64,000 nt of DNA, taken from positions 2,688,520 to 2,752,519 of the forward strand of contig OY764542.1 of the NCBI GenBank assembly GCA_963668465.1. Reading direction: 5' to 3'. Shown in pieces: positions 5,897 to 59,234 of the stretch. Positions within the stretch are counted from its first letter, which is position 1. The number at the start of each line of letters is the position of its first letter. A program made the translations under genes and the position numbers. The notes under the pieces were generated by a model. The model was given only the letters and a program-made list of their open reading frames with translations. It made no database searches and had not been told where the DNA came from. The stretch comes from Dehalococcoidia bacterium (GTDB lineage: Bacteria > Chloroflexota > Dehalococcoidia > Lucifugimonadales > Australimonadaceae).

Positions 5897-7006
5897 TTAG
5901 CGGACGGATGCGGTCCTGGCCCGGATATAGTTCATGCGCCCCACTTGCAGAACGGAGCCCTTGATCTCCATGACGGCGAGCGTTCCGCTGGCCTGCGTTA
6001 TGGACATGCCGGCGCTGCGGCTCAGTTCGTCTATGTGCTGCGGCTCGTGGGTGAGCGCTTCGAGCAGCCGCGCTTCGTCTTCCGTGTCGGGAGAGAGCCC
6101 GGGAAGCGGCTGCTGTCGCGGCGCACCGCCGATGTGCAACTCCTCCAGCACGTCCTCGACCCGCATCACGAGCTTGGCGCCCTGCTGGATGAGCCAGTTA
6201 GTGAGCTCGCTCGCAGGCGAGTGGATGCTCCCGGGCACGCAGAGCACTTCCCTGTTCTGTTCCAGCGCGAACTCGACGGTCGACCGTGCGCCACTGTCCT
6301 TCGGCGCTTCTACGACCAGCACGCCCAGGCCCAATCCGCTCAGCAGTCGATTGCGCCGGGGGAAGTGGCGTGCCTCTGGCTTGGCGCCGAGCGGGTACTC
6401 GGAGATCACCGCCCCGTTGTCCACGATTCGTTCGAACAGCGACCGGTGCTCGGGCGGGTAGACGACGTCCAGGCCGGAGCCGATGACCGCGATCGTCCTG
6501 CCTCCTGCCCTGAGGGCAGCGTCGTGCGCGACGCCGTCGATGCCCCGCGCCAGCCCACTGACAATGGAGATACCGGACTCCGCCAGGTCGCTTGAGAGCT
6601 GCCGTGCTACCTCTTTGCCGTACGGGGTCGGTTTGCGTGTGCCGACAACAGTGACGCGGACCTCGTCGTCCGGTTGCAGCGCTCCCTTGACGTAGAGGAT
6701 GGGAGGTGGGTCGTCGATGTTGCGGAACATGTGTGGGTACTCGGAGTCGTGCCAGGTGAGCACCGCTACGTTGGCGTTGCGCACCCGTTCGAGTTCGCGT
6801 TCAGGCTCGACGACTCTGCGCACCTGCTCAATCGCACTGACGACGCTTGGTGTGAGGCCCGATGCGCCCAGTTCACTTCCCGAAGCCTCCCACGCAGCCT
6901 TGAGCGACCCGAACCGCTCTTCGAGAAGGCCGATGCGCACGCGCCCTACGGTGGGTACACGTGAGAAAGCTATCCAATAGGGGAGGTCGTGTTCGATCGT
7001 GGTCAC
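5897..7006 (-). CDS. dprA: DNA processing/protecting protein DprA (Smf)
   Basis: 369-aa ORF. Rossmann-like DprA core (VVGTRKPTPYGKEVARQLSSDLAESGISIVSGLARGIDGVAHDAAL) plus a C-terminal winged-helix tail. dprA directly upstream of topA is a common arrangement. Confidence 0.9.
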   Translation of the reverse strand: MTTIEHDLPYWIAFSRVPTVGRVRIGLLEERFGSLKAAWEASGSELGASGLTPSVVSAIEQVRRVVEPERELERVRNANVAVLTWHDSEYPHMFRNIDDPPPILYVKGALQPDDEVRVTVVGTRKPTPYGKEVARQLSSDLAESGISIVSGLARGIDGVAHDAALRAGGRTIAVIGSGLDVVYPPEHRSLFERIVDNGAVISEYPLGAKPEARHFPRRNRLLSGLGLGVLVVEAPKDSGARSTVEFALEQNREVLCVPGSIHSPASELTNWLIQQGAKLVMRVEDVLEELHIGGAPRQQPLPGLSPDTEDEARLLEALTHEPQHIDELSRSAGMSITQASGTLAVMEIKGSVLQVGRMNYIRARTASVR

Positions 7007-7665
7007 TGTTTTCTCTCTCGACTGATCCGCCGCATCCGGCGCTCCGCGTGACGCCGCTGGGCTACGGGTAGGTTGTCCACTGCCAGTACGCGCTCGACAT
7101 CCTCGACGGACACGTCCTTGGCGTGGCGGACGTCGCTCAGCAGTCGTATCGAGATGCGGGCCGGGTGTGGCTCGACTAGAGTTGCCTCGTCACCTGCCTG
7201 CACGGGGCCTTCCTCCAGGACTCGGTTGTAGAAACCGACGCGCCCACTGCGCCGGAAGCGCGCCGCGAAGTAGCGGATGCCCATCTTGTGGTCCAGCTTG
7301 AAGCAAGGCGATCGCGGCTCTGTTACCTGCAGCAGCGCACCACCGACGCGCCAGACATCGCCGAAACACATCGCGTCGGACGACGCGCCCTCAACGGTGA
7401 GGTTCTCGCCGAACCACCCGAAGGAATCGAGCTCACGTTTCAGCTGTGCCGTCCAGAAGGCGTAGTCCTCGAACGCGTAGACGTAGACCGCGGCGTCCGG
7501 GCCGCCGTGGACGGCCGGGTCGCCCTGGGCGTCGCCGTCCACGTTGAGGCGGCGGACCATGACGGAGCCCTCGACGGGCCGTTTGTGGATGGACGACATC
7601 ACGTCGCCCCTGGCGGTTCCCGTGAGGAGTTGAGGCTTGGCGACGTTGACCGATTTGAGTTGCAT
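7003..7665 (-). CDS. MOSC domain-containing protein
   Basis: 220-aa ORF with beta-barrel MOSC pattern (GENLTVEG...GDVWRVGGALLQVTEPRSPCFKL). 4-nt overlap with dprA. Confidence 0.82.
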   Translation of the reverse strand: MQLKSVNVAKPQLLTGTARGDVMSSIHKRPVEGSVMVRRLNVDGDAQGDPAVHGGPDAAVYVYAFEDYAFWTAQLKRELDSFGWFGENLTVEGASSDAMCFGDVWRVGGALLQVTEPRSPCFKLDHKMGIRYFAARFRRSGRVGFYNRVLEEGPVQAGDEATLVEPHPARISIRLLSDVRHAKDVSVEDVERVLAVDNLPVAQRRHAERRMRRISRERKQ

Positions 7666-46573: not shown

Positions 46574-47847
46574 TGGGGCGTCCGCGGTTTCGGCGACAGC
46601 GCCAGCAGCATCAACCCTGCCAACAGGGCGCCCGCCGCCGCAAGCCAGCCCACGGTGAAGCTCGTCAGGTCGAACAGCATCCCCAGGACGGGCGTGCCGA
46701 TGCCGGTCATGATCAGCGTGATCGGTGTCGCAGCCCCTCGCACCGCGCCGATGTGATCGCGTCCGTAGTAGGCGGGCCAGATGTGCGTCTGCGTGAGCAT
46801 CCCCGCGCCGAGCCCGATGCCCGCCAGCGCAGCGCCTGCGAACCCGTGCCACGTCGTGCTGGCTACCGCGGCGACGAGCATCCCGGCTGCCACGCTCGCG
46901 AATCCGGCCATCGCTACGTAGCGGGGCTGCACACGGTCCATCCACGGCGCGATGACGATGGCCGAGGCGACCTGGGTGAACGCCTGCACGGAGAAGGCAA
47001 GCGCGGCTACCTGCGGGGAGATGTCCAGCGATCGGAGGAATGCGACCCAGAACACGCCCACGGTGCCCATCGCGGCCATGAGCAGTCCAAAGGCCACGCT
47101 GATGCGCCAGAAGGCGCCGGTGCGCATCGACTGCCGGACGGTCCACGAGTATTCGAGGCGGTGCTCCATCCGGGCGCGTTCGTTGGCATCGAGCGAACCG
47201 GACTCGCCGTCGGGGAGCAGGCCGAGGTCCGACGGCTTGTTGCGGACGAACGCCAGGGAGATGGCAGCGATGGAGAGCCCGCCGATGATGCCGAGGATGA
47301 ACCACGCGTCGCGCCAGCCCACGGTGTCGACCAGCATCTGCGTGATCGGGCTGGAGATGCCGATGCCGAAGGGGATGCTGGGGAAGAAGACCGACATGGC
47401 GCGTCCGCGCTTGCGGACGAACCACTTGGCGATGGGGATGGTGAGGAAGAGCGTGCTGCTGCCCCAGAACCCCATCATCCCGCTGAACAGCGCGAGACCG
47501 ATCATCTGCCAGCCCGAGTTGATGAGGCTCATCGACGCTGCTGCGCCGCCGAGCATGAGGCCGGCCACCGCAAGCGGCACGCGGGAGCCGCGGCTGTCGA
47601 GGAGGCGTCCGATGAACGGGCCCGAGAGCGCGAAGCCGAATAGGCGCGCGGACAGCGCCCAGCCGAAGGCGCTGTTCCCGAGCCCCAGCTCCTCGCTCAT
47701 GGGCGCGACGAAGATGCCGAAGTTGCCGATGCCTACGAACATGCTGGCGCCCCCGGCAACGCCGAGGGCGGCAACGATGACCCAACCGTAGTAGGGACGT
47801 GAGGGGCGTGACGAACGGCGCGCCTGGCCGGGGAGCGGCTGCTCCAA
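46570..47847 (-). CDS. MFS transporter
   Basis: 425-aa ORF with 12 hydrophobic segments. Confidence 0.85.
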   Translation of the reverse strand: MEQPLPGQARRSSRPSRPYYGWVIVAALGVAGGASMFVGIGNFGIFVAPMSEELGLGNSAFGWALSARLFGFALSGPFIGRLLDSRGSRVPLAVAGLMLGGAAASMSLINSGWQMIGLALFSGMMGFWGSSTLFLTIPIAKWFVRKRGRAMSVFFPSIPFGIGISSPITQMLVDTVGWRDAWFILGIIGGLSIAAISLAFVRNKPSDLGLLPDGESGSLDANERARMEHRLEYSWTVRQSMRTGAFWRISVAFGLLMAAMGTVGVFWVAFLRSLDISPQVAALAFSVQAFTQVASAIVIAPWMDRVQPRYVAMAGFASVAAGMLVAAVASTTWHGFAGAALAGIGLGAGMLTQTHIWPAYYGRDHIGAVRGAATPITLIMTGIGTPVLGMLFDLTSFTVGWLAAAGALLAGLMLLALSPKPRTPQ

Positions 47848-47851
47848 GAGG

Positions 47852-48760
47852 CTAGCTGCTCTCTTCTTCGCCGGGGCCGGTCAGTTTGCCGAGGAACTCC
47901 TCGACGGAGGGCGGGAGCGGTGGAAGCTCCTTCTTCTCCTCGGACTGCCGCTCCTGCTGGCGCCTGCCGCGCCTGGCGTCGTAGTCCGACTCCAGCCGTT
48001 CGACGAGCGACTTCACCTGCGCGTTGCGCTGCATCTCAGAGGTGACGCGTGCGTACTGCTGGGTGTCGCGCTGGCTGGCGGCGTACTCGGCGGGAAAGCC
48101 GTAGAGGGTAGAGAGCACCTGGAGCATCTTCGAGCGTCCCGCGAAGTCGGCTTCGAGTTCCACGTAGTGGGGGAGCCTGCACATGAGCATCATGTTGTCG
48201 ACCCCGCTCGCACTGATGCGGTCGCCGACCATGTTCATGATGGACGTAGGGCCCTGGTACGGCCTGCGCCGGTTGCCCTCGACGCCCTCCACGCCCTGCA
48301 GCGGTTCGCCGTTGAGGGTGCCCATGACCAGGAGCGGCCGCGTGTGAGGGACGGCGTCGTACATCGCGCCGATCCGGCAGAAGCGGTCCACGTTCAGGTA
48401 GGAGATGACCTCCACCAACGCCTCGATGTACTCCTCCGCGTTGGAGTGCGGCTCCAGCATGTGCAGGAAGATGAAGTCGTGGCTGCCGAGGCCGGTGGCC
48501 CAGCGCAGGTCGGCGTTGGGGACGCGCATCTTCCGCTTGCCGTCCTCGAAGTAGACGACCGGCCGGTAGCGCGTGAAGTCGAAGAAGTGCCCCGGCTTCG
48601 CGAGCGAGCCCAGGTCACGGGCGCGCATGTAGCGCTCCAGCCGCTCGATGCTCAGCGACCCGACGCTGCCGGCGTCGATCCACGGCGTCAACGACGCGAT
48701 GATGTGCGGCGACCGCAACTCCGGCAGAGGCTCTTGTATCTCGAACTCGCCTACTCTCAT
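47852..48760 (-). CDS. PAC2 (proteasome assembly chaperone 2-like) family protein
   Basis: 302-aa ORF. The N-terminus EPLPELRSPHIIASLTPWIDAGSVGS fits the bacterial PAC2 family as I remember it. Confidence 0.7.
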   Translation of the reverse strand: MRVGEFEIQEPLPELRSPHIIASLTPWIDAGSVGSLSIERLERYMRARDLGSLAKPGHFFDFTRYRPVVYFEDGKRKMRVPNADLRWATGLGSHDFIFLHMLEPHSNAEEYIEALVEVISYLNVDRFCRIGAMYDAVPHTRPLLVMGTLNGEPLQGVEGVEGNRRRPYQGPTSIMNMVGDRISASGVDNMMLMCRLPHYVELEADFAGRSKMLQVLSTLYGFPAEYAASQRDTQQYARVTSEMQRNAQVKSLVERLESDYDARRGRRQQERQSEEKKELPPLPPSVEEFLGKLTGPGEEESS

Positions 48761-48829
48761 GGCCCTATAGTGTTCCCCTCATGCGCGGATTGCAACCCTT
48801 CTGTGGGAGAATCCGCACCGGTCTGTGAC

Positions 48830-51148
48830 CTACCGGGACGCCTGCCGCGTGGCGCGCCACACGCGCTCCGCCGTGAACGGGATGTCCACCATCGGCGCGC
48901 CGATCTGCCGCAGCGCGTCGTGGACGGCGTTGGCGAGCGCGGCGGGGCTGGCGCACGACGGCATCTCGCCGATGCCGCGCACGCCGAGCGCGCCGTTCCT
49001 CGCCTCCGTCGCATGCGTCTCGACCACCATGTGCGGCAGGTCCTCCGCAAGCGGCATCGCGTAGTCCATGAACGACCACTCGCGCGGGCGTCCGTCGTCA
49101 GCGTAGGAGACAGCTTCGCACATCGCCTCACCGAACCCCTGTACGACGCCTCCGTGTATCTGACCCTCCACGATGATCGGGTTGATGAGGTTCCCCACGT
49201 CGTGCACGGCAACGAAGTCCCGGGCGCGTACGTCTCCCGAGTCCGGGTCGATTTCCACGTACGCGATGTGCGTGGCGAACGCGAAACTCCCCGGCGGCAG
49301 CGTGAAGGTCGAGTAGTGCCGGAACCCGCCGTCTGCATCCCCCGCCATCCCGGCGAGCCTGCCGAGCGGCACGGACCGCGCCGGGTCCGAGCGCGAGACA
49401 GCCGCGCCGCCCTCGAGCGTCACGTCGTCCACAGGCGTTTCGAGCAGGTGCGACGCCGCGTCCAACAGCTTGTCGTGCGCCTGGCACGCGGTCTGGTAGA
49501 CGGCGTGCCCGCCGATGACGAGTCCTCGGCTGGCGTAGGTGCCCGCGCCCGGCCCGAACGGTTGGATGGCGTCGCTGTCGCCGTGCTTCACGGTGATGTC
49601 GTCCGGCGATACGCCGAGAGCGTCCGCCGCTATCTGCGCGAACGTCGTCGCGTTGCCCTGCCCGTGCGGTGAAATGTCGGTCGTGAGGCGGACGTGGCCG
49701 TCCGCATCGATGTCGACCGCTGCGGCGCTGGAGCGCGCGGCGTCGCCGCCCGTGCCCCCGGAGCCCTTCGTCGACAACGCGATGCCGAGTCCGACCGTGC
49801 GGCCCTCCTGCCGCTCGCGGTCGCGCCGCGCCAGCAGGTCGCCGTACCCCGCGACCTCGAGCGCCCGGTCGAGCACTGGCTCGTAGTCGCCGTCCACGTA
49901 CGGGGTGCCGGACATCGTCGTGTAGGGGAACTGGTCCGGCGGTATGAGGTTCCGGCGCCGCACGACGACGGGGTCGATGCCCAATTCCTCCGAGACGAGG
50001 TCCATCATCCGCTCCATGCAGAACGTGCCCTCCGGCTGTCCCGCGCCCCGGTACGAGGTGATGGGCGGCCGGTTCGTCATCAGGCAGACCTGCTCGCCGT
50101 CGAAGGCGGGCACGTGATACGGACCGGTGAAGCGCTTCACCGCGTTGTCCGGCGACGTGAACGCGCCGTTGATCCAGTAAGCGCCGAGGTCCGACAGGAA
50201 GCGCCCCCTGAGTCCGAGTATCTGGCCGTCGTTCTTGACCGCTGCCTCGACGTGCGCCTCCAGCCCCCGGGCGTGGGACGAGTGGATGTTCTCGCTCCTG
50301 TCCTCCACCCACTTCACGGGGCGGCTGAGGCGCATCGCGAGGATGATGGCCGCAGCCTCCTCGGGGTAGACGTGGTGCTTGTGCCCGAAGCCGCCGCCCA
50401 CGTCCGGCGTGATGACGCGCACGTGGCCCGGCATCGTCAGCGCCTCCTCGATGTGGTGCTGGGTGTCGTGCGGCGACTGGTTGGACGACCAGAACGTGAG
50501 GTCGCCGGAGGCGTCGAAACTCGCGATACAGCCCCGGCCCTCCATCGGCATCGGCGCGAGGCGCGGGATGACGAACGAGGCGGAGACGACCCGGTCGGCG
50601 GCTGCGAAGGCGCCGTCCACGTCGCCTCCTCCCGAACGCTGCGACGCTCCGACGTTCGACCCGATCACGGGATGGAGCGTGGGATAGTCGCCGTCCGCTG
50701 CACGCTGCAGGTCGTTGATGGCTTCCAGCGGCTCGTAGACGACCTCGACGCGGGCGGCGGCGTCGGTGGCCTGCGCGGCCGTTTCCGCTGCGACGGCGGC
50801 GACGGCCTGCCCTGCGTAGAGCGCCCGCCCCAGCGCGAGGATGGGGTGCGCGCCACCCGGGTTGATCTGCATCCCCGGCCTGCCGATGCTCTCCAGCACC
50901 GCGCCTTCCTCCACGTCGTCCGACGTGATGACGGCAAGCACGCCGGGCATCGCCAGCGCCTCGCTCGCGTCGATGCGCTCGATGCGCGCATGCGCGTGCG
51001 GGCTGCGTACGATGGCTGCGTGCGCCATGTTCGGAAGCGTCATGTCGGCGATGAACTCGCCATTGCCACGGAGGAGGCGGTCGTCCTCGAAGCGGGGGAT
51101 CGATTGTCCGGTGTAGGGAGTGCTGGCGTCTGGTGTTGTCGTAGTCAT
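48830..51148 (-). CDS. xanthine dehydrogenase/CoxL family molybdopterin-binding large subunit
   Basis: 772-aa ORF. a/b-hammerhead start (IPRFEDDRLLRGNGEFIADM), then Mo-cofactor domains (GGGFGHK ... ). No small or medium subunit gene lies adjacent. Confidence 0.9.
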   Translation of the reverse strand: MTTTTPDASTPYTGQSIPRFEDDRLLRGNGEFIADMTLPNMAHAAIVRSPHAHARIERIDASEALAMPGVLAVITSDDVEEGAVLESIGRPGMQINPGGAHPILALGRALYAGQAVAAVAAETAAQATDAAARVEVVYEPLEAINDLQRAADGDYPTLHPVIGSNVGASQRSGGGDVDGAFAAADRVVSASFVIPRLAPMPMEGRGCIASFDASGDLTFWSSNQSPHDTQHHIEEALTMPGHVRVITPDVGGGFGHKHHVYPEEAAAIILAMRLSRPVKWVEDRSENIHSSHARGLEAHVEAAVKNDGQILGLRGRFLSDLGAYWINGAFTSPDNAVKRFTGPYHVPAFDGEQVCLMTNRPPITSYRGAGQPEGTFCMERMMDLVSEELGIDPVVVRRRNLIPPDQFPYTTMSGTPYVDGDYEPVLDRALEVAGYGDLLARRDRERQEGRTVGLGIALSTKGSGGTGGDAARSSAAAVDIDADGHVRLTTDISPHGQGNATTFAQIAADALGVSPDDITVKHGDSDAIQPFGPGAGTYASRGLVIGGHAVYQTACQAHDKLLDAASHLLETPVDDVTLEGGAAVSRSDPARSVPLGRLAGMAGDADGGFRHYSTFTLPPGSFAFATHIAYVEIDPDSGDVRARDFVAVHDVGNLINPIIVEGQIHGGVVQGFGEAMCEAVSYADDGRPREWSFMDYAMPLAEDLPHMVVETHATEARNGALGVRGIGEMPSCASPAALANAVHDALRQIGAPMVDIPFTAERVWRATRQASR

Positions 51149-51189
51149 GGGCGGGATTCTAGCCTCCCTCGTTCGTTCATGTTTCCACC

Positions 51190-51410
51190 GTCATTCCCGC
51201 ACCGGCGGGAATCCAGGGTGGTGTAGGGGCAGGTTTGAAACCTGCCCCTACCGGGGGCGGGGACGGGGGTGCGCCGCAAGCACTGGCGGGGCGCGTCCTG
51301 TCGCTTCCCCATTTTCATTCCCGTACACGGCCTGACAAGGCCCTGGGCCGTCCCTGCGAAGGCAGGAACCTCGTCCCCTGGGTGTAGGGGCGGTTCGCGA
51401 ACCGCCCCTG
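51190..51410. repeat. composite REP cluster (family B, family A variant, B variant, family A)
   Basis: Family B at 51190-51215. A variant at 51223-51250 (gtaggggcaggtttgaaacctgcccctac). B variant at 51351-51371 (gtccctgcgaaggcaggaacc). Family A at 51385-51410. Confidence 0.85.
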
Positions 51411-51423
51411 CGGGAGGCCATCG

Positions 51424-52503
51424 TTACAGACCGTAGAAGGTCCAGGGGTTGTCCTCGAGGATCTTCCGCTTCGCGGTCTGGCTGAACTCTCCCTCGTCGG
51501 CCCTGCGGCGCAGGATGTCTATGGCGCCGATCTCAGCCGACAGGTCGGCGTGCGAGTAGTCGGTGCCGATCATCAGGTGGTCCTCGGTGCCGAACGTCAG
51601 CAGATACGGGATGTCCTCCTGCGATTGGCAGGTCACATAGAGCCGGTGCTCGTGGAAGAGGTCGCTCAGGTCGTCCGAGTAGGTGAACGTCCTGTATGCC
51701 CACGCCATGCGCTCCCGGCGGGCGTAGAGCCTGTCGACCACGAACGGGATCCAGGACGACCCAGCCTCGATGAAGCCGAACCGCAGTCTCGGGAACCTGA
51801 ACGCGAGGCCGGAGAAGACGATGGCGTGGAACGCGTCTATGACGTTGGTGCCGGTGACCCCGTCGCCGAGGAGCGGCGCGCTGCTGCCGGCGGGCGGGTC
51901 GCCCGAGCCAGTGTGCATGCAGAGCGCAAGGTCGAGGTCGTTCGCCTCCTGGTAGACCGGGAAGAAGTAGGGATCGGTCACGCGCCTGCCCAGCTCCGTT
52001 GCCAGCTTGAAGACCCCGCAGGCCCCGTGCTCGCTCGCCCAGCGGACCTCATCCACGGCGGCTTCGATGTCCAGCATCGGCAGGACGGCCACCCACCGGA
52101 GGCGTCCGTTGCTCTCGGCGGACCTGTCGGCCATCCAGCGGTTGTAGCTCTTGCAGATGGCGGTCTGGGCGTGCGGGTCGTTCGTCAGGTAGGTGAGGAA
52201 CATCGTGGGGTACATGACGTGCACGTCCACGCCCATCTCGTCCATGTGCCGCAGGCGGGTCTCGACGTTCCTCAGCTCGCGGGCGTCGATGGTCGTGCCG
52301 GTGCGCCGGTCGTCGCGGATGCGGCGGATCGACAGGTTGCTGCCGATGAGCCAGTGCCTCGTGTAGCCGGGGGCGGGAGCGCCATCGCCCATGTCCTCGG
52401 TAGGAACGACCGTGACCGGCTTGTAGCGCGCGTCCTCGGGCGGCATGTAGCGCCACGTCTCCTCGCATTCGTCCACGTGCGTGTCGGCATCGACCACAGC
52501 CAT
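51424..52503 (-). CDS. amidohydrolase-2 (ACMSD/LigW-like metal-dependent hydrolase/decarboxylase) family protein
   Basis: Start ATG 52503 (MAVVDADTHVDE), 7 nt after GGAAGGAG. D-x-H start motif and C-terminal GTDYSH. The track ORF (685 aa) extends antisense into the znuA-like gene. Confidence 0.85.
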   Translation of the reverse strand: MAVVDADTHVDECEETWRYMPPEDARYKPVTVVPTEDMGDGAPAPGYTRHWLIGSNLSIRRIRDDRRTGTTIDARELRNVETRLRHMDEMGVDVHVMYPTMFLTYLTNDPHAQTAICKSYNRWMADRSAESNGRLRWVAVLPMLDIEAAVDEVRWASEHGACGVFKLATELGRRVTDPYFFPVYQEANDLDLALCMHTGSGDPPAGSSAPLLGDGVTGTNVIDAFHAIVFSGLAFRFPRLRFGFIEAGSSWIPFVVDRLYARRERMAWAYRTFTYSDDLSDLFHEHRLYVTCQSQEDIPYLLTFGTEDHLMIGTDYSHADLSAEIGAIDILRRRADEGEFSQTAKRKILEDNPWTFYGL

Positions 52504-52881
52504 CGGCTCAGCTCCTTCCCCGACTTCGACTCGACACTCGGAGCACCAACGCCGCGAGCATAAGCCGGGCGCCCGGCGGTGTACAGTCCCGCCGGGCATC
52601 GGGGTGGACCGGGAGACCGACAGGACCCATCCGTGAGCCGCAGCGGCCACCAACCGCCCGTCCCATGCGGGAACGGCGGGGTTCGGGCTGGTATCATCTT
52701 CGCTGCTATTGATACAACGTATTGACAATATGCAGGCGTGTTTGGTTCTATCTATGCCGTCACGCCGTTCGGGCACCGGGCTGAACCTGCACCATCGACT
52801 CATAGTGGATGCAGATGCGCAGCAAAGGCCGCGCAGGTCTCCCTGTGCACGGACCATGTATACCCTTATGGAGGCGATAGA

Positions 52882-55203
52882 ATGAGACGAAGTATTAGTA
52901 GTGTGTTTCTGCTGCTCATCGTCACGGCCCTGGCCCTGGCGATAGCGGCCTGCTCGGATGAGCCTGAGCCTACGAACACTCCCACCAGCGCTCCCGATCC
53001 TGCCAACACCCCCACCAGTGTCCCCTCCGAGCCACTGAGCGTGGTCGCGAGCATCTACCCGATGCAGTACTTCACCGAACGCATCGGCGGCGACCGGGTG
53101 GAAGTCGAGACCATCGTGCAGCCCGGCACCGAGGCCCACGGGTTCGAACTCACGGCGAGCGACCTTCTCAGGATCGCCGATGCCGATGTCGTAGTGACGA
53201 ACGGCCTCACTCTGTTGCCCTGGCTGGATCGTGCGATCGAGTCCCTGGGCGACGACCTCTCCGGCATCGTGGTTGAGGCTGCGTTCCCAGAGGCGGCACT
53301 GCCCATCCAGGAAGGCGCAGACCCACACGGCCACGAAGACGAAGACGAGCACGGCCACATGGAAGAGGGCGGCCACGAAGACGAAGACGAGCACGGCCAC
53401 ATGGAAGAGGACGAGCACGGCGACGAAGGCGAGTCGGCCTTCGACGGACGCCTGCTGGTCGCGGACCTCGATGCGCAACACCTCTCAGTGATCGACCTCT
53501 CGACGGAGGAGGTGGACGTTGGCGCCTTCGAGATCAGTGCTCCGCCGGCCGCGATCTACCCCAGCCCGACGCACCGCTACGCCTTCGTCCTCGCCAGGGG
53601 CCCGGGTGAGGCGGATGACGGCATCCACATCTTCGACGGCGGCATCTTCCTCGTGGAGCACGGCGACCACTTCGACCTCGTGCGTGAGCCGGTCTCGCGT
53701 CACCCCCTCGTAGCGACGGTTGAACGGCCGATCCACTTCGTCAACAGCTACGGCTGGACGGCAGTGTTCGCCGACGCTCACGGCGACGTCTACCTCTACA
53801 ACGAGGACGAGCTCGCCAGCACGCAGGGCGACTACCAGCCGATCGTGTTCGAAACCGGCCCGCAGCACGGTGCTGCCCTGGCGATCTCCCCCGACGAGTT
53901 CATCGTGACCACGAAGAACCCCGACTACCCCGAGAACTCGGACGACAGCCTGCCCGTCGGCGTTGAGGTACTCAACCTGGACGGCGAAGTCGTCTATGAC
54001 GCCAGCAACCGTTCCTGCCCCGGCATGCACGGCGAGACGCACAACGAGGAAGGCGCCATCTTCGGCTGCGTCGGCGGAGTGCTCTTCCTGCACCCGCACG
54101 GCGGCAGCTACGACCACGAATTCATCGAGAATCCGTCCGAGATGCGCGAGGAGTCGCGCATCGGCTCCTTCTTCGGGCACCACGACCTGCACCATTTCTT
54201 CGGACGCGCCTCCTACTTCGACGGTCAGGGTTTCGCCAACGACGGCATCTGGCTGATCGACCCGGAGTCGGGCGAGTTCCGGCGGGTATTCAGCGAGCCG
54301 GTCGCGGCCGGTGGCGTCGGCGCGCACGCGGAGCGCCTCTACCTGCTCACCGCCGAAGGCGAACTGCACGTGCTGGATGCCCACGACGGCGATGAGATCG
54401 CGCACCTCCACGTCATGGACCCGGGCGAGGGTGGGCGGCCCCGCCTCATCATCGTCGGCGAGACGATGTTCATCACGAACCCGGCCCAGGGTGAGGTCAT
54501 CGCGCTCGACCTCGAACACCTCGAAGTGGAGGAAGCGTGGGACGTCGGCGGTTCGCCCTCCGGCCTCGCCTTCGTTGGCACCCTCGGTGAAGACGAGCAC
54601 GGCCATGAAGACGAAGATGAGCACGGCCATGAGGACGAGGATGGCCATGAAGACGAGGATGACCATGGCCATGGCGAGTACGACCCGCACTTCTGGCTCG
54701 ACCCGCTGCGCGCCGTCAGCCAGGCAGAGCGCATCGCAGAGGCGCTGATCGAGGCGGACCCCGAGGGCGCGGACGTCTACCGCGCGAACCTCGCCGCACT
54801 CTCGGCAGACCTCCGGGCGCTGCACGCGGAGTTCGAGGCGGGTCTCAGCTCGTGCGTCCACCGCGAGTTCGTCACGTCCCACTCTGCATACGCATACCTC
54901 GCGCTGGCCTACGACCTGGAACAGGTCGGGATCGCGGGCCTCTCCCCGGAGCCAGAGCCGTCGCCGCAGCGTCTCGCCGCCATCGCGGACCGCATCAAGG
55001 AGCTCGGCATCACGGCGGTCCTGCTCGAGCCCGTGCTCTCCGGCGCGAACGAGAAGGCGCTCGCCGACGAGACGGGGGCCGGCATCCACCAGATCCACTC
55101 GATAGAGAGCGTTACCCAGACTGAGCTGGACGAACACGGAGACTACCTCGGCCTGATGCGCGACAACCTGAACAGCCTCCGCATCGCGATGGAGTGCTCG
55201 TAA
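52882..55203 (+). CDS. cluster A-I metal ABC substrate-binding lipoprotein (ZnuA/AztC-like) with a ~450-aa insertion at the His-loop position
   Basis: Start ATG 52882, 7 nt after GGAGG. Lipobox LAIAAC. N-lobe VVASIYPMQYF..PGTEAHGFELTASD..VVVTNG. C-lobe DPHFWLDP..SHSAYAYLA..VLLEP. Between them lie two His/Asp/Glu tracts and a ~370-aa strand-rich domain. Confidence 0.85.
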   Translation: MRRSISSVFLLLIVTALALAIAACSDEPEPTNTPTSAPDPANTPTSVPSEPLSVVASIYPMQYFTERIGGDRVEVETIVQPGTEAHGFELTASDLLRIADADVVVTNGLTLLPWLDRAIESLGDDLSGIVVEAAFPEAALPIQEGADPHGHEDEDEHGHMEEGGHEDEDEHGHMEEDEHGDEGESAFDGRLLVADLDAQHLSVIDLSTEEVDVGAFEISAPPAAIYPSPTHRYAFVLARGPGEADDGIHIFDGGIFLVEHGDHFDLVREPVSRHPLVATVERPIHFVNSYGWTAVFADAHGDVYLYNEDELASTQGDYQPIVFETGPQHGAALAISPDEFIVTTKNPDYPENSDDSLPVGVEVLNLDGEVVYDASNRSCPGMHGETHNEEGAIFGCVGGVLFLHPHGGSYDHEFIENPSEMREESRIGSFFGHHDLHHFFGRASYFDGQGFANDGIWLIDPESGEFRRVFSEPVAAGGVGAHAERLYLLTAEGELHVLDAHDGDEIAHLHVMDPGEGGRPRLIIVGETMFITNPAQGEVIALDLEHLEVEEAWDVGGSPSGLAFVGTLGEDEHGHEDEDEHGHEDEDGHEDEDDHGHGEYDPHFWLDPLRAVSQAERIAEALIEADPEGADVYRANLAALSADLRALHAEFEAGLSSCVHREFVTSHSAYAYLALAYDLEQVGIAGLSPEPEPSPQRLAAIADRIKELGITAVLLEPVLSGANEKALADETGAGIHQIHSIESVTQTELDEHGDYLGLMRDNLNSLRIAMECS

Positions 55204-55272
55204 CCGGGTAGGGAAGCGATACGGCGGCCGCAAATCTGAATACGGCCGCCGCGAGGGAAGGAGAGGCGTGCG

Positions 55273-55719
55273 ATGAAGTGGTACGGCGAACCAGAGCGCA
55301 TCGACGCAGATCAGATGCCGGACTGCGAAGCATGCGACAAGGAGTGCGCGGACTGCTCGGGGCAGACGGTCAACGGCGGCTTCGCGACGCCGCTCTGCCC
55401 GGAGCCACGCGGGTTCGAACTGGATGAGCTGATCAACTTCGCGACCATCGCGGCCAACGCGGCAGGGCACCAGCTGGACCCCGAAGAGACGGACGCTGAG
55501 TTCAACGCAGTGCTCGTCGACCTGGACGCGGGCGATGCCAGTTTTCTGGTGGACCTGATGTTCTATCAACTAACCGGCCCCCTCCTGGGGGGTGCGCCGA
55601 AGTCCTCCCCGGCGCACCCCCCTACCTCGGCTGAACCGCTCGCTGAGCAATGCGATCTGACCCAACCGGACTCACACGAAGTATCCATACAGGAAGCCAC
55701 GGGAAACGAAACCCCATAG
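55273..55719 (+). CDS. hypothetical protein (Cys-rich N-terminus); 3-prime end uncertain
   Basis: GGAAGGAGAGG upstream. N-terminus MKWYGEPERIDADQMPDCEACDKECADCSG. The last ~45 codons run through a palindromic repeat (55587-55622), so the annotated tail may not be genuine. Confidence 0.45.
   Translation: MKWYGEPERIDADQMPDCEACDKECADCSGQTVNGGFATPLCPEPRGFELDELINFATIAANAAGHQLDPEETDAEFNAVLVDLDAGDASFLVDLMFYQLTGPLLGGAPKSSPAHPPTSAEPLAEQCDLTQPDSHEVSIQEATGNETP
55587..55622. repeat. hairpin repeat family F (loop AAGTCCTCCC), copy 1
   Basis: GGGGGGTGCGCCG aagtcctccc CGGCGCACCCCCC, a 13-bp stem. Confidence 0.75.
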
Positions 55720-55732
55720 AAAGGAGACGGAA

Positions 55733-55915
55733 ATGGTAGAGATGACGGCATATTCGGTGAAGCTGAAGAAGATGGTGACCATCAAGGACCCGGAGGTGGT
55801 AACCCTGAAGAACGGACGGAAGGCGATCCGCGGTGTAGCCGCGGAGGACCCGTCCAGCAAGGTCATCAGGATCGTGAGTGACAAGGACGCGGCAGAACTG
55901 GGGGTGCGCGGCTGA
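55733..55915 (+). CDS. small protein resembling a Cys-less DUF5679-type zinc-ribbon family member
   Basis: AAAGGAGA upstream. Product MVEMTAYSVKLKKMVTIKDPEVVTLKNGRKAIRGVAAEDPSSKVIRIV. The AYCVKCK...GRxAxxGxCPxCGTKxxRI pattern I recall has all four Cys positions replaced here. Confidence 0.5.
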   Translation: MVEMTAYSVKLKKMVTIKDPEVVTLKNGRKAIRGVAAEDPSSKVIRIVSDKDAAELGVRG

Positions 55916-55980
55916 CTCGCGCCGTCCCTGAGTAGCACCACCGGGAGCGGACTCGCCGGTCGCCGGCTGGAGCTGTACCT

Positions 55981-56031
55981 GGGGGATGCGGGGGCGCGCC
56001 AAGTCCTCCCGGCGCGTCCCCGCCATCCCCC
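55981..56031. repeat. hairpin repeat family F (loop AAGTCCTCCC), copy 2
   Basis: GGGGGATGCGGGGGCGCGCC aagtcctccc GGCGCGTCCCCGCCATCCCCC, a ~20-bp stem with one bulge and one mismatch. Confidence 0.75.
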
Positions 56032-56156
56032 TTTGTGGTTGGCGGGGTCGGTGAGCATGGAGGGTGGCAGGGTTGTGGTCGATTCCGTAGTGGAGGCGCG
56101 GGAGGTGGCGCGACGGTGGAAGGGAGGGCGAGGGCGCCCGCCGTCACTGGGGCGGT

Positions 56157-56582
56157 ATGATTGCTCGCAGCAGTGAGTTGACCGGCATGAATCAGGAACT
56201 GGACTACAGGGAGTTGCCCACGGAACGGGACGTCCTTGCGCCGGACGGCTCGGAGATCCGGCTGATGTCGGAGACGAGCCGGGGGAGCATGGTCCACTGC
56301 TCGCTGGCTCCGGGAGAGGTGTCACTGCCTGTTGCCCACCGGACGGTTGAAGAGGTCTGGTACTTCCTCGAGGGCACAGGCCAGGTGTGGAGGAAGCATG
56401 GCGGCGAGGAGCGCGTCGTGGACGTGGTTCCGGGCGGGAGCCTGTCGATCCCCGTCGGCGCCCACTTCCAGTTCAGGACAACCGGCGACCGTCCGCTGAG
56501 GTTCGTGATCGTTACCATGCCGCCCTGGCCCGGCGACGATGAAGCCTATCCCGTGGCAGGCTGCTGGCCTGTTACACCGTAG
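56157..56582 (+). CDS. cupin domain-containing protein
   Basis: 141-aa ORF with two-motif cupin beta-barrel spacing (VAHRTVEEVWYFLEGTGQVW ... GGSLSIPVGAHFQFRTTG). Confidence 0.75.
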   Translation: MIARSSELTGMNQELDYRELPTERDVLAPDGSEIRLMSETSRGSMVHCSLAPGEVSLPVAHRTVEEVWYFLEGTGQVWRKHGGEERVVDVVPGGSLSIPVGAHFQFRTTGDRPLRFVIVTMPPWPGDDEAYPVAGCWPVTP

Positions 56583-56612
56583 ACCCCGATAGCCCCACCT
56601 CCGGAGGGAGTC

Positions 56613-57167
56613 ATGACACGCATCACGCCCATCACCGACAAGACCCAGCTCCCACCGGAGCGGCAACACGAGTGGGACGCGGTACTCGCTGAACGTGGAC
56701 GCGTCCGAGGGCCGTTCGCGGTCATGCTCCAGAGCCCCGGACTCGCCTCGGGCTTCCTGTCGACCCTCCGGAACACGCACGACGACAGCGTCGTCAGCCC
56801 CGCGCTGCACGAGCTCGCCATCCTCGCCGTCGCCTACGAGGACGACGCCCCCTACCAGTGGTCGGTCCACGTCTCGACCGCCCGCGCCGCGGGCCTGGGC
56901 GCCGCCGCCATCGACGCCGCCCGCACCGGCGCTGACGCCAGCCACCTCGACGACGACGAGCGCGACGTCATCGAACTGTCCCGCCAGCTCTGCCGCACGA
57001 ACCGGGTGGAGCAGGCGCTGTTCGACTCCCTCATGGCAAGGCACGGCCAGCACTGGCTCATCCTCATCGTTGGCACCATCGGCCTCTACCGCTACGTCGC
57101 CGCCTTCAACAACGCCTTCGATATCGACGTGATCGCGGGCGACGACCAGTTGCCGCCGCGTGGCTGA
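56613..57167 (+). CDS. carboxymuconolactone decarboxylase (AhpD-like) family protein
   Basis: 184-aa all-helical ORF with CMD-family repeat features (ELAILAVAYEDDAPYQWSVH; ELSRQLCRTNRV). Confidence 0.72.
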   Translation: MTRITPITDKTQLPPERQHEWDAVLAERGRVRGPFAVMLQSPGLASGFLSTLRNTHDDSVVSPALHELAILAVAYEDDAPYQWSVHVSTARAAGLGAAAIDAARTGADASHLDDDERDVIELSRQLCRTNRVEQALFDSLMARHGQHWLILIVGTIGLYRYVAAFNNAFDIDVIAGDDQLPPRG

Positions 57168-57260
57168 GCCAGGGGCGTCCGCGCTCGCAATCGGGCGAGG
57201 GAAGGCAAGGGCGCCCACGAGGGACGCCCCTACACCAGGCCACCGGAACCGGGCTGCGAG

Positions 57261-57335
57261 GTTCCTGTCTCCGCAGGAACGACGGAGGTGGTGGGACGCC
57301 TCCCGAGAGATTTCTCGGCTTCGCTCGAAATGACA
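57261..57335. repeat. REP cluster (B variant + short E variant)
   Basis: ggttcctgtctccgcaggaacgac at 57261-57285 and tcccgagagatttctcggcttcgctcgaaatgaca at 57301-57335. Confidence 0.8.
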
Positions 57336-57347
57336 TGGCATGGCGCG

Positions 57348-58997
57348 CTACCACCAGACCTGGATGCGTGGGACAGGAGGACTGCTGCTGTCGCCGGGGG
57401 CGTCGGCGGGCGGGTGGCTGGGGTCGGCGCCGGGTTCCGGGGGCTCGGAGAGCGATGGGCGCGGGAGCTCGTAGCCTATGCCGTACTGGGGACGCGGGAG
57501 GCGGCGCGACAGCGGGAGGTCGTCGTCCAGGAAGGGTTCCGTGCCGGTCCAGATGCCGAAGGACGGCGGCTTGAGGAAGGCGAGGGCGAGCGCGTCCGCC
57601 TTGTCGGGCGAGGGGAGGCCGCGCTTGCGCATCTCCCGCTTGCCCTCCAGCCGCACCTGGCCGGAGCTGGAGACGTCGTAGCGCAGGGAGACGAGCTGAC
57701 CGGCGAGTTCTTCGTCCGGCGGGAGGACCATCAACCCGTCGTTCAGCAGCATCCGCACTTCCCAGAAGATCTCGGAGCGCGTGTTGAAGAAGCGGGTGCG
57801 GTGGGGTGCGCGTCCGCCGAAGTGGACGCCGTAGACCGGCTCGCCGAGTTCGCGCAGGCGGTCGATGACGCCGCCGCCGAGGCCGCCCTCGTCGACGAAT
57901 ATCGCCTCGGCGCCCGTCTCCTCCCGCGTCCGGATGATCTCGTGGACGAGGCGCATCGTGTCCATGCGCGAGAAGGAGGTGAGGCTGTGGACGCGCTGCC
58001 CCTGCCGCACGCAGATGGCGGACTTGTCCGGGCCGAACCGCCCGACGTCGACGCCGAGGTAGACGGGTTCGTTGGGGTCGAGGGGCAGCGTTGTCATGCC
58101 GGGCGTTGTCATGTTGAGCGGAGCCGAAACATCCCTCGGGGAGCGTTCGTCCTCAGCGGCATCCGCGCCCGAGAGATTCCTCGGCTCCGCTGCACTCCGC
58201 TCGGAATGACAATCGGCCCAGCGCTCCATGGCGTGTTCCACGGCGTCGCGGCCGACGAGGGAGTCTTCCTGGGCGTTGGGGAACTCGGCGAGGACGCCGG
58301 CGACGTAGGAGGGGTGGTCTTCGGACCAGTCGAGAGCGAGCTCCTCGGCGTCCTCGGGGGTGATGGCGCCGGGGAGGCCGCCGTTCTCGCCGGTGAAGTT
58401 GGGGGTGTCGTAGGCGGATATCTTGATGCGGTGGTAGCGCGCGCGGCGGGAGTGGTGGGACTCGTAGAACTCGCCTTCGAGCGTCATGGCGTTGCCGACG
58501 AGGAGGAGCCGGTTGGGGTGGAGGCGCTTGATGGCGTCGATGTGGTCCTGGGGCATGGCGTGGGCCTCGGTGACGACGACGAGCAGGTTGGGCGAGTGGA
58601 AGCCCTGGATGTTGCACGCCTTGTTGGTGGAGAAGCCGAGCGCGAACCGCTTCTCGTCGATGCGGTACTTCGAGGCGAGCATCTTCCCGCCGAGGCGCTC
58701 CTCCGCCACGGCGTACGCCTCGCGCATCTCCTGCCAGACGATCTCCTCGACCTGCCGCTGCGTGGGCCCGGTGACGACGACCTTGGACTCCGGCCGGGTC
58801 TCGATCCACCAGAGCACGGCGCGCGCGGCTGCCCAGTCCTTGCCGCAGCCGTTCGCTCCGACGACCGAGACGCGGCGGTGCTCCACGACCGCCTCCAGCA
58901 TCTCGACCTGCTTCGAGTACGGCATCCCCGCCTCGCCGAGCACGTCGTTCACGAACCCGACGGGGTCGTCCACGTATCGTGTGAGGTCTTCTGTCAC
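57348..58997 (-). CDS. phage terminase large subunit-like protein (ATPase + RNase H-like nuclease), isolated
   Basis: Walker A-like VVGANGCGKD and Walker B-like LLVVVTEAH. Nuclease motifs LGVDVGRFGPDKSAI, IFVDEGGLGGGVIDRL and SPDKADALALAF. A REP family E copy sits in-frame between the two domains. Confidence 0.78.
   Translation of the reverse strand: MTEDLTRYVDDPVGFVNDVLGEAGMPYSKQVEMLEAVVEHRRVSVVGANGCGKDWAAARAVLWWIETRPESKVVVTGPTQRQVEEIVWQEMREAYAVAEERLGGKMLASKYRIDEKRFALGFSTNKACNIQGFHSPNLLVVVTEAHAMPQDHIDAIKRLHPNRLLLVGNAMTLEGEFYESHHSRRARYHRIKISAYDTPNFTGENGGLPGAITPEDAEELALDWSEDHPSYVAGVLAEFPNAQEDSLVGRDAVEHAMERWADCHSERSAAEPRNLSGADAAEDERSPRDVSAPLNMTTPGMTTLPLDPNEPVYLGVDVGRFGPDKSAICVRQGQRVHSLTSFSRMDTMRLVHEIIRTREETGAEAIFVDEGGLGGGVIDRLRELGEPVYGVHFGGRAPHRTRFFNTRSEIFWEVRMLLNDGLMVLPPDEELAGQLVSLRYDVSSSGQVRLEGKREMRKRGLPSPDKADALALAFLKPPSFGIWTGTEPFLDDDLPLSRRLPRPQYGIGYELPRPSLSEPPEPGADPSHPPADAPGDSSSPPVPRIQVWW
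58168..58210. repeat. REP family E copy inside the terminase-like CDS
   Basis: cccgagagattcctcggctccgctgcactccgctcggaatgac, translated in-frame as HSERSAAEPRNLSG. Confidence 0.85.
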
Positions 58998-59020
58998 GGG
59001 TCCACCTTCTCCACCCGGAT

Positions 59021-59046
59021 AAGGGCGGTTCGCGAACCGCCCCTAC
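59021..59046. repeat. REP family A
   Basis: aagggcggttcgcgaaccgcccctac. Confidence 0.85.
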
Positions 59047-59054
59047 GCCGGTTA

Positions 59055-59090
59055 ACACAAAAAGCCCCCTCGCTCTTTCGCTGAGGGGGC
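59055..59090 (-). terminator. intrinsic terminator after the small 82-aa gene
   Basis: The minus strand reads GCCCCCTC agcgaaagagc GAGGGGGC followed by TTTTTGTGT. Confidence 0.6.
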
Positions 59091-59234
59091 AGCGGTCTTC
59101 CTGCGGCTTGTCCGTCAGGGTCAATTGCGCTCTATGTGCGCTGTGCAGGCATTATGCGGTGGGCGTGGACACTTTGGCAAGTGCCAAATGTCATGCTGGT
59201 GACTCTTACTGCGAATTCAGAGTCTTTTCGAGTG

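Follow-up and report, generated by a model that had tools for sequence, protein, structure and literature searches.

How can one gene encode both lobes of a zinc receptor with a complete further domain between them, and what might that domain do there? The question is raised by a locus in a stretch of 64,000 nucleotides (nt) from a Dehalococcoidia bacterium (Chloroflexota; NCBI GenBank assembly GCA_963668465.1, contig OY764542.1, positions 2,688,520 to 2,752,519 of the forward strand), hereafter the window, in which all our coordinates are counted. An initial annotation made from the letters alone had described a metal-binding lipoprotein gene at 52882–55203 that is split by a large insertion. 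We confirmed that the product is one intact lipoprotein, a cluster A-I zinc substrate-binding protein (SBP) interrupted at its His-rich loop by a beta-propeller of the AztD type. The fused lipoprotein is likely the membrane-anchored extracytoplasmic zinc receptor of an importer of the AztAB/ZnuBC type, and as such would carry its own metallochaperone. The gene is laid out as follows (aa, amino acids; pLDDT, predicted local distance difference test):

52870 to 52874, + strand: Shine-Dalgarno-like GGAGG, read from the sequence
52882 to 55203, + strand: coding sequence of the fused lipoprotein, stop included (773 aa; stop codon 55201–55203)
52882 to 52953, + strand: lipoprotein signal peptide, aa 1–24 (n-region MRRS, hydrophobic core, lipobox IAAC)
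52954 to 53028, + strand: Pro/Thr/Glu-rich tether, aa 25–49, from composition and an AlphaFold pLDDT below 50 for aa 25–47
53029 to 53319, + strand: SBP N-lobe, aa 50–146, with zinc ligand His86 (Pfam ZnuA; aligns with AdcA residues 3–100; pLDDT ~77–95)
53320 to 53436, + strand: His/Asp/Glu tract 1, aa 147–185 (42-nt tandem DNA repeat; pLDDT ~30)
53437 to 54585, + strand: AztD-type beta-propeller, aa 186–568 (NCBIfam AztD profile, PDB sequence matches, Foldseek, invariant ligands)
54586 to 54678, + strand: His/Asp/Glu tract 2, aa 569–599 (tandem-repeat DNA, disordered in the model; holds H573 and the invariant H595 and H597)
54679 to 55200, + strand: SBP C-lobe, aa 600–773, with DPH603FW, H667 and E742 (best Pfam ZnuA stretch aa 583–767; AdcA alignment)

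A single frame is open from 52738 to 55203 on the + strand, and the probable start is the ATG at 52882, 7 nt 3′ of GGAGG. The signal reads MRRS..LALAIAAC, and Cys24 of the lipobox is invariant among 59 aligned homologues. All four receptor motifs picked out by the initial annotation (VVASIYPMQYF, PGTEAHGFELT, DPHFWLDP and SHSAYAYLA) lie in this one 773-aa frame, and the Pfam ZnuA model (PF01297; 264.4 bits against a cutoff of 29, E 1.4e-78) matches it in two stretches separated by the insert. The limits that had been set for the insertion, nt 53320–54680, were accurate and correspond to aa 147–600; the EHGDH motif reported within it is at aa 259–263, inside an all-beta domain of ~380 aa (aa 186–568). 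An exact-sequence lookup of the window protein returned no identical record.

When aa 155–593 were cut out in silico, AdcA gave the strongest PDB sequence match to the remaining SBP: its ZnuA-like domain (7jj8 residues 3–278) aligned with it without a break at E 7e-47. The splice point falls in the His-rich loop of AdcA, just ahead of DPHxW in the alignment, which is where the insertion had been placed from the letters. H86, H603, H667 and E742 align with AdcA His63, His140, His204 and Glu279, of which we take His63 to be a ligand from the AdcA structure; H86, H603 and H667 are invariant in the family. The other three AdcA residues have been named as ligands (PMC7858048). In an AlphaFold2 model built on the alignment of 59 homologues, SBP lobes and propeller were both predicted with confidence, pLDDT being high for the lobes (aa 52–134 and 662–770) and the long helices at 608–655, and Foldseek matched the SBP part to ZnuA, AdcA, Lmb and YcdH. 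In the model, the window protein appears to keep the two-lobe cluster A-I fold with ligands from both lobes.

Among NCBIfam SBP models the best-scoring was AztC (NF040870), which reached 162.4 bits on the native protein and 174.9 bits once the insert had been taken out, over profile positions 1–275 of 277. The AdcA model (NF033605) gave 150 bits against a cutoff of 700, and a Pfam search found no ZinT domain (PF09223) in the window protein. Paracoccus AztC cannot take zinc from AztD without its D-loop, which a docking model places inside the AztD pore (PMC7463823, PMC6689063). The window protein lacks the short AztC-type D-loop and has a 454-aa insert at the loop position; two invariant residues close ahead of DPH603, H595 and H597, may be a remnant of that loop.

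What, then, is the insert? The initial annotation had likened it to AztD, and profile, PDB sequence, structural and ligand comparisons all bore this out. In the full protein, the NCBIfam AztD model (NF038015) matches aa 193–566 over profile positions 1–355 of 356 (E 3.4e-39, 134.6 bits); the excised propeller scores slightly higher (E 4.3e-40, 137.5 bits) and matches no other NCBIfam family. Searching PDB sequences with phmmer retrieved AztD 6cmk (E 4e-22 over residues 37–400 of 421) and AztD 6ck1 (E 2e-14). The modeled propeller, with pLDDT mostly 84–96, points the same way: the top nine Foldseek matches of the AlphaFold model in the PDB are AztD (6n01, 6cmk and 6ck1; E 1e-21 to 6e-26; target-normalized template modeling score 0.78–0.82), and ZnuA-family structures rank next. 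Pfam, which has no AztD model, reports only ZnuA and a sub-threshold PQQ_2 match for the window protein, and generic "ZnuA" annotations arise for this reason.

The propeller also retains the aligned metal-site residues of AztD. Residue numbers of Paracoccus denitrificans (Pd) AztD are from PMC6689063, and the window equivalents come from phmmer alignment to AztD structures:

AztD site 2: Pd His99, Gly100, His102 and Asp104; window protein H260, G261, H263 and D265
AztD site 1: Pd His124, His167 and His218; window protein H285, H329 and H383
AztD disulfide: Pd Cys214–Cys231; window protein C379 and C396

H260, H263, D265, H285, H329, H383, C379 and C396 are invariant in all 59 aligned fused proteins, and G261 is Gly in 49 of them. 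In standalone AztDs the ligand and Cys positions are kept in 85–94 of 95 proteins, with Asp/His exchange at the position of D265. Site 2 of AztD, its transfer-competent site, is formed jointly by the N- and C-terminal strands, and its fourth ligand is the C-terminal His408 (PMC6689063). In the fused protein, tract 2 has H573 as its first histidine, which is kept in 55/59 homologues. It falls no more than one residue from where Pd His408 would be expected, a point that the alignment does not reach; it is a candidate equivalent of His408 that may complete site 2. Eight further propeller histidines (H200, H231, H249, H274, H387, H406, H412 and H501) are conserved in the main fused clade and not in standalone AztDs or a distant fused clade. 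These may provide extra weak zinc sites or a relay.

The insert is bracketed, as had been noticed, by twin tracts made almost wholly of His, Asp, Glu and Gly. The tract 1 core (aa 148–184) has 8 His and 19 Asp/Glu among 37 residues, and its DNA (53327–53433) is a direct tandem repeat with a period of 42 nt (2.5 copies, 89% matches). The tract 2 core (aa 570–599) has 7 His and 18 Asp/Glu among 30 residues and is likewise encoded with a 42-nt period (54588–54673, 2.0 copies). The two are 60–74% alike at the DNA level. A counterpart of tract 1 (median 34 aa, 7 His and 16 Asp/Glu) was found in 59/59 aligned homologues, in which both flanking tracts are His-rich throughout.

To what extent is this architecture shared? 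Among 5.8 billion proteins searched, 597 matched. The best 120 of these, in which we compared landmarks, are 700–1340 aa long and share the order signal, N-lobe, HGDH, DPHxW; independent assemblies carry the full-length architecture at 44–91% identity to the window protein. With only the propeller as query, 1.84 billion cluster representatives yielded 555 family members, and we classified the best 150: 126 are propeller-only (mostly 380–500 aa), 11 are complete N-lobe/propeller/C-lobe proteins, 1 has two propellers between the lobes, 3 are lobeless tandem propellers and 9 are truncated fused forms. In species-representative genomes, 249 loci hold relatives. The best 80 of these 249 are all from Chloroflexota, namely Dehalococcoidia (including SAR202) and Caldilineaceae, many on closed chromosomes. 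We examined these 80 together with loci L001 and L002 and the window (L and P numbers are our labels for the genomic loci and database proteins compared), and 77 of the 83 have a complete fused gene. The search for the same domain order that the initial annotation had called for thus returned 77 complete loci in species-representative genomes, all Chloroflexota.

A distant second fused clade of ~100 clusters occurs in Caldilinea, Aggregatilineales, Anaerolineae and Chloroflexales; P0175 and P0154 (48% identity) form one clade. Fused forms occupy at least 2–3 positions among standalone AztDs in a weakly resolved neighbor-joining tree, in which a single origin is not established. Closer to home, the window is collinear with SAR202 bin16 (L003) over 47141–59163 (~12 kb) at 91–97% identity, and P0001 matches its protein along 100% of the length at 91% identity. 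This closest database protein is labeled Candidatus Palauibacter sp., presumably a Gemmatimonadota genus, and all genome-level relatives, the syntenic SAR202 bin16 among them, are Chloroflexota. The label probably reflects a binning or labeling error; recent transfer is less likely.

Several variants of the architecture were seen. A recurrent subfamily of ~890–910 aa has both ZinT (PF09223) and an AztD propeller between the SBP lobes, giving three zinc-handling modules per chain (L084 1779–4466, which is P0151, and P0311, P0312, P0328, P0334, P0338, P0344, P0347 and P0359). Other proteins have two tandem AztD propellers between the lobes (1050–1340 aa) or consist of tandem propellers of ~990 aa without lobes; examples of the two types are L022 6870–10949, P0019, P0020, P0012, P0014, L085 7001–9967 (P0026) and P0024, and the lobeless protein in L085 has no zinc genes nearby. 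Two fused paralogues lie in tandem behind one fur gene in L001 (7548–9812 and 10001–12325; the upstream copy is 56% and the downstream copy, P0004, 79% identical to the window protein), and the same arrangement occurs in L009 (7476–9752 and 9931–12279). Beside its fused protein, L002 also encodes a classical 382-aa ZnuA (6467–7615), whose unusually long loop is ~70 aa of perfect (HGDEDE)n repeat. An extra ~150–200 aa with no Pfam match stands between lipobox and N-lobe in P0028, P0047, P0062, P0082 and others (~915–1000 aa). In P0157 (1030 aa), an AztD-like propeller lies within an FG-GAP/ASPIC (UnbV) repeat protein, and P0127, P0133, P0152, P0162 and others have long N-terminal extensions of unassigned type; AztD propellers therefore occur in several further architectures.

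Does the fused protein work with a transporter? As the initial annotation had remarked for the immediate neighborhood, no ATP-binding cassette (ABC) permease or ATPase gene is adjacent, and this holds for the whole 64-kb window, where tblastn and phmmer on six-frame open reading frames (ORFs) found neither these nor a fur gene. The neighbors are unrelated: a molybdopterin dehydrogenase, an amidohydrolase, a cupin and a CMD-family gene. Among the 77 complete loci, by comparison, 32 have a Fur-family gene directly upstream, and in 31 the genes for an ABC ATPase and an ABC-3 permease come immediately after the fused gene. For 27 of those 31, the retrieved flanks (up to ~8 kb on either side) contain no further ZnuA-type gene. 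A convergent ABC-3 gene is present in 16/77 loci, and 8/77 also hold a classical ZnuA. The L016 permease is best described by the AztB model (222 bits); the ATPase beside it scores 196 bits on AztA, its fourth-best match, under the 220-bit cutoff. From the missing transporter it had been proposed that the partner is encoded elsewhere or that the protein acts as a metal buffer or store. This fits the window copy, but the operon linkage of 31/77 relatives does not, and favors a true receptor role.

The best-surviving alternative, which we nonetheless consider unlikely, is that the protein is a high-capacity surface zinc buffer or store, or a feeder to another, classical ZnuA, whose permease link was lost in the sub-clade of the window. 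The transporter-free window suits it, as do the many His-rich low-affinity elements and clade-specific surface histidines. So does the arrangement in L012, where a separate operon of fur, plain ZnuA, ATPase and permease lies ~1 kb downstream of the orthologue, and that in the Caldilineaceae loci L002, L028 and L031, where a classical ZnuA operon precedes the fused gene. However, the SBP ligands and both lobes are as conserved in this sub-clade as in operon-linked relatives, and next to the permease of 27 loci there is no SBP gene other than the fused one. Non-adjacency does not imply that docking is lost, as two SBPs, AdcA and AdcAII, are known to share one common permease (PMC8416893).

Is zinc the metal? 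Upstream of the gene we noted an operator-like box:

52709 to 52725, + strand: candidate Fur-family (Zur-like) operator core TTGATACaacGTATTGA, overlapping a -35-like TTGACA at 52723–52728

The core belongs to an AT-rich element, ATTGATACaacGTATTGACA, at 52707–52728, which occurs once in the window with 0.08 occurrences expected by chance. It is kept at 17–20 of 22 positions upstream of fur or the fused gene in 13 loci (L001 and L003–L014); the conserved AT-rich box reads ATTGATACnnnGTATTGACA (window 52707–52728, L001 6955–6981 and the upstream regions of L003–L014), and in farther loci the corresponding position is occupied by the palindromic TGATACnnnGTATCA. In this clade the palindrome is imperfect, and the box came to light only when loci were compared, an inverted-repeat finder having returned nothing upstream of the fused gene. 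The box is probably a binding site of the linked Fur-family regulator. A sigma-70 consensus scan found no promoter, canonical -10 element or terminator of note, and Rfam found no riboswitch in the leader.

It is a good deal less probable that the same architecture serves another metal (Mn, Fe, Co or Ni). For this speak the Fur-family regulators, which fit Fur/PerR models better than Zur, and the L016 ATPase, whose top match is a model of a Mn transporter from Deinococcus; among SBP models, MntC ranks second on the spliced protein. The SBP site here is His3 plus Glu, like that of zinc-specific AdcA, and not His2-Glu-Asp as in PsaA and other Mn-type proteins. The best models remain AztC for the SBP and AztB for the permease, and the aligned AztD ligands are kept. 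His-rich loops mark zinc-specific cluster A-I proteins (PMC6689063, PMC7858048). The genomic surroundings of relatives also point to zinc: a zinc role would be backed by the upstream Fur-family genes, by ZinT in the same loop of relatives, and by CobW/COG0523 genes, which lie near the fused gene in Caldilineaceae loci and in L083, and beside the distant P0175.

More doubtful still is a non-metal role of the propeller, such as adhesion to a host or sponge matrix or scaffolding, with the SBP acting alone. Beta-propellers are common as interaction scaffolds, the laminin-binding adhesins Lmb and Lbp, which are ZnuA-family lipoproteins, are among the structural matches, and isolate names suggest that many carriers are sponge-associated metagenome-assembled genomes. 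Yet the aligned site 1 and site 2 ligand positions and the disulfide are invariant across fused homologues with identities as low as ~49%, and both tracts are always His-rich; such invariance is unexpected of a purely structural part.

That an assembly chimera or frameshift joined separate aztC and aztD genes across the His-tract DNA has next to no probability, and mis-assembly is excluded for practical purposes: mis-joins are conceivable in repetitive, mutually similar tracts, but an end-to-end mis-join cannot nest one complete gene in a second whose two halves both stay in frame, the collinear SAR202 assembly is independent, and the complete loci (77/83), at 44–93% identity, include closed long-read chromosomes (OZ and OY accessions).

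Several points weigh against the reading as a zinc receptor with a built-in AztD. Both NCBIfam cutoffs were missed, the 400 bits of AztD and the 350 bits of the AztC equivalog model; NF038015 is an 'exception' type model, and its score supports homology to AztD and not equivalog status. E742 is Glu or Asp only within the sub-clade of the window (10/59), with ambiguous alignment elsewhere. Not only the window copy but also its closest relatives (L003–L005) have no adjacent transporter or fur gene, and the Zur that is outscored by Fur and PerR on the linked regulators is that of E. coli. The model leaves the relative position of propeller and SBP undefined (pLDDT ~30 for tracts and linkers; predicted template modeling score 0.53), and the presumed nearness of site 2 to the SBP cleft is argued from AztD topology, not seen in the model. 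In addition, the benefit of the chaperone may be modest, given that Paracoccus AztD is not essential for low-zinc growth (PMC6689063).

For the reading as a self-chaperoned receptor, we propose the following mechanism. The flexible His-rich loop of an SBP would have been enlarged by a complete AztD propeller with an acidic poly-His tract on either side. Zinc would first be collected, at low affinity, by these disordered tracts and by the propeller surface, which is enriched in His; the propeller sites would hold it at high affinity. As site 2 of AztD is built from its terminal strands, the inserted site 2 should lie at the bases of the tethers, beside the mouth of the receptor cleft. Zinc would then pass intramolecularly from site 2 to the receptor His3-Glu site (H86, H603, H667 and E742), which would act as a kinetic trap, and the loaded receptor would dock on an AztAB-type permease. 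Expression would probably be repressed by a Fur-family (Zur-like) regulator through the box at 52709–52725. Between free AztD and AztC, complex formation is slow and rate-limiting (PMC6689063), a step that the covalent link would remove. A single lipid anchor could moreover retain the chaperone at the surface of monoderm cells, where a free chaperone could be lost; Chloroflexota are mostly monoderm.

Among known systems, the two-protein AztC-AztD pair of AztABCD from Paracoccus denitrificans (AztD 6ck1, 6cmk and 6n01; AztC 5w57) comes closest, and both partners are present in the fused protein. Shared with AztD are an 8-bladed-type propeller, the three His of site 1, the HxxHxD of site 2 and the Cys-Cys disulfide. 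As in AztABCD, the adjacent permease of relatives is best described as AztB, and the junction corresponds to the AztC D-loop. In contrast to AztC-AztD, where AztD is normally a separate gene, AztD here lies inside AztC in one polypeptide. The short three-His D-loop of AztC contrasts with two tracts of ~30–40 residues, and the equivalent of His408 cannot be a chain terminus. The fused propeller is only ~20–24% identical to the crystallised AztDs and scores far under the NCBIfam equivalog cutoffs; its carriers are Chloroflexota with lipoproteins, compared to Proteobacteria with periplasmic proteins for AztC-AztD.

The closest known fusion is AdcA of Streptococcus pneumoniae (7jj9), a ZnuA with a C-terminal ZinT. 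Like the fused protein, it is a lipid-anchored zinc SBP with a covalent zinc-recruiting domain, a His3-Glu site and a His-rich loop. Its lipocalin-like ZinT domain is attached C-terminally through an 11-residue linker, whereas the AztD propeller sits in the loop; AdcA ZinT has no counterpart in the window protein, but relatives such as P0151 hold ZinT and AztD together in the loop. Classical ZnuA proteins (Synechocystis 1pq4, E. coli 2osv and the L002 ZnuA) share the fold, DPHxW, the three His ligands and an acidic His-rich loop which, unlike that of the fused protein, is low-complexity only and contains no folded domain. The fused protein, homologous to both AztC and AztD, differs in topology, its chaperone forming a domain insertion within the receptor loop. 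As loop modules we saw a single AztD propeller, a tandem pair of propellers, or ZinT together with AztD. Whether the His-rich loop of cluster A-I zinc receptors is in general an insertion hotspot for zinc-capture modules, yielding self-loading receptors with intramolecular transfer, we regard as evenly poised.

The initial annotation had called the architecture undescribed. For the literature searched this stands: among articles that mention AztD or fusions of ZnuA, propellers and metallochaperones we found no such protein described, with subscription journals mostly outside the search and an earlier mention possible. In sequence databases, on the other hand, it is abundant under generic ZnuA names. 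Public annotation is blind to the AztD domain, and the fused proteins (124 complete ones and ~100 more clusters) are named plain "ZnuA" or not at all; the architecture is unrecognized rather than rare.

Extracytoplasmic protein-to-protein metal transfer is poorly understood, the AztD-AztC complex being transient and its geometry coming from a docking model. The covalent fusion lies exactly at the transfer loop and therefore gives independent, Rosetta-stone support for that docking model. If they are self-loading receptors, these proteins would be natural "Rosetta-stone" constructs that fix the geometry of the transient transfer complex, and would make the hand-off of zinc from protein to protein accessible to structural and kinetic work. 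A single-chain fusion also has the stability that suits crystallography, cryo-EM and kinetic studies. Dehalococcoidia/SAR202, Caldilineaceae and Anaerolineae are where the family is concentrated; it may account for the way in which these monoderms compete for zinc, and may be a key zinc-scavenging adaptation of monoderm symbionts, for example in sponges.

Three further elements lie 3′ of the fused gene. The first is directly downstream:

55273 to 55719, + strand: small Cys-rich ORF of 148 aa, containing …DCEACDKECADC…

It is 86% identical to its L001 counterpart, lies directly downstream of the fused gene in 11 loci, is possibly co-transcribed with that gene, and matched no Pfam or NCBIfam family. 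At 57348–58997 on the - strand, a 549-aa ORF has a weak, sub-threshold match to Terminase_6N (E 8e-4) and is conserved in SAR202 bin16. Also conserved there is a 53-nt hairpin at 55980–56032, sub-threshold on both strands for an unrelated Rfam microRNA model, which is probably just a palindrome.

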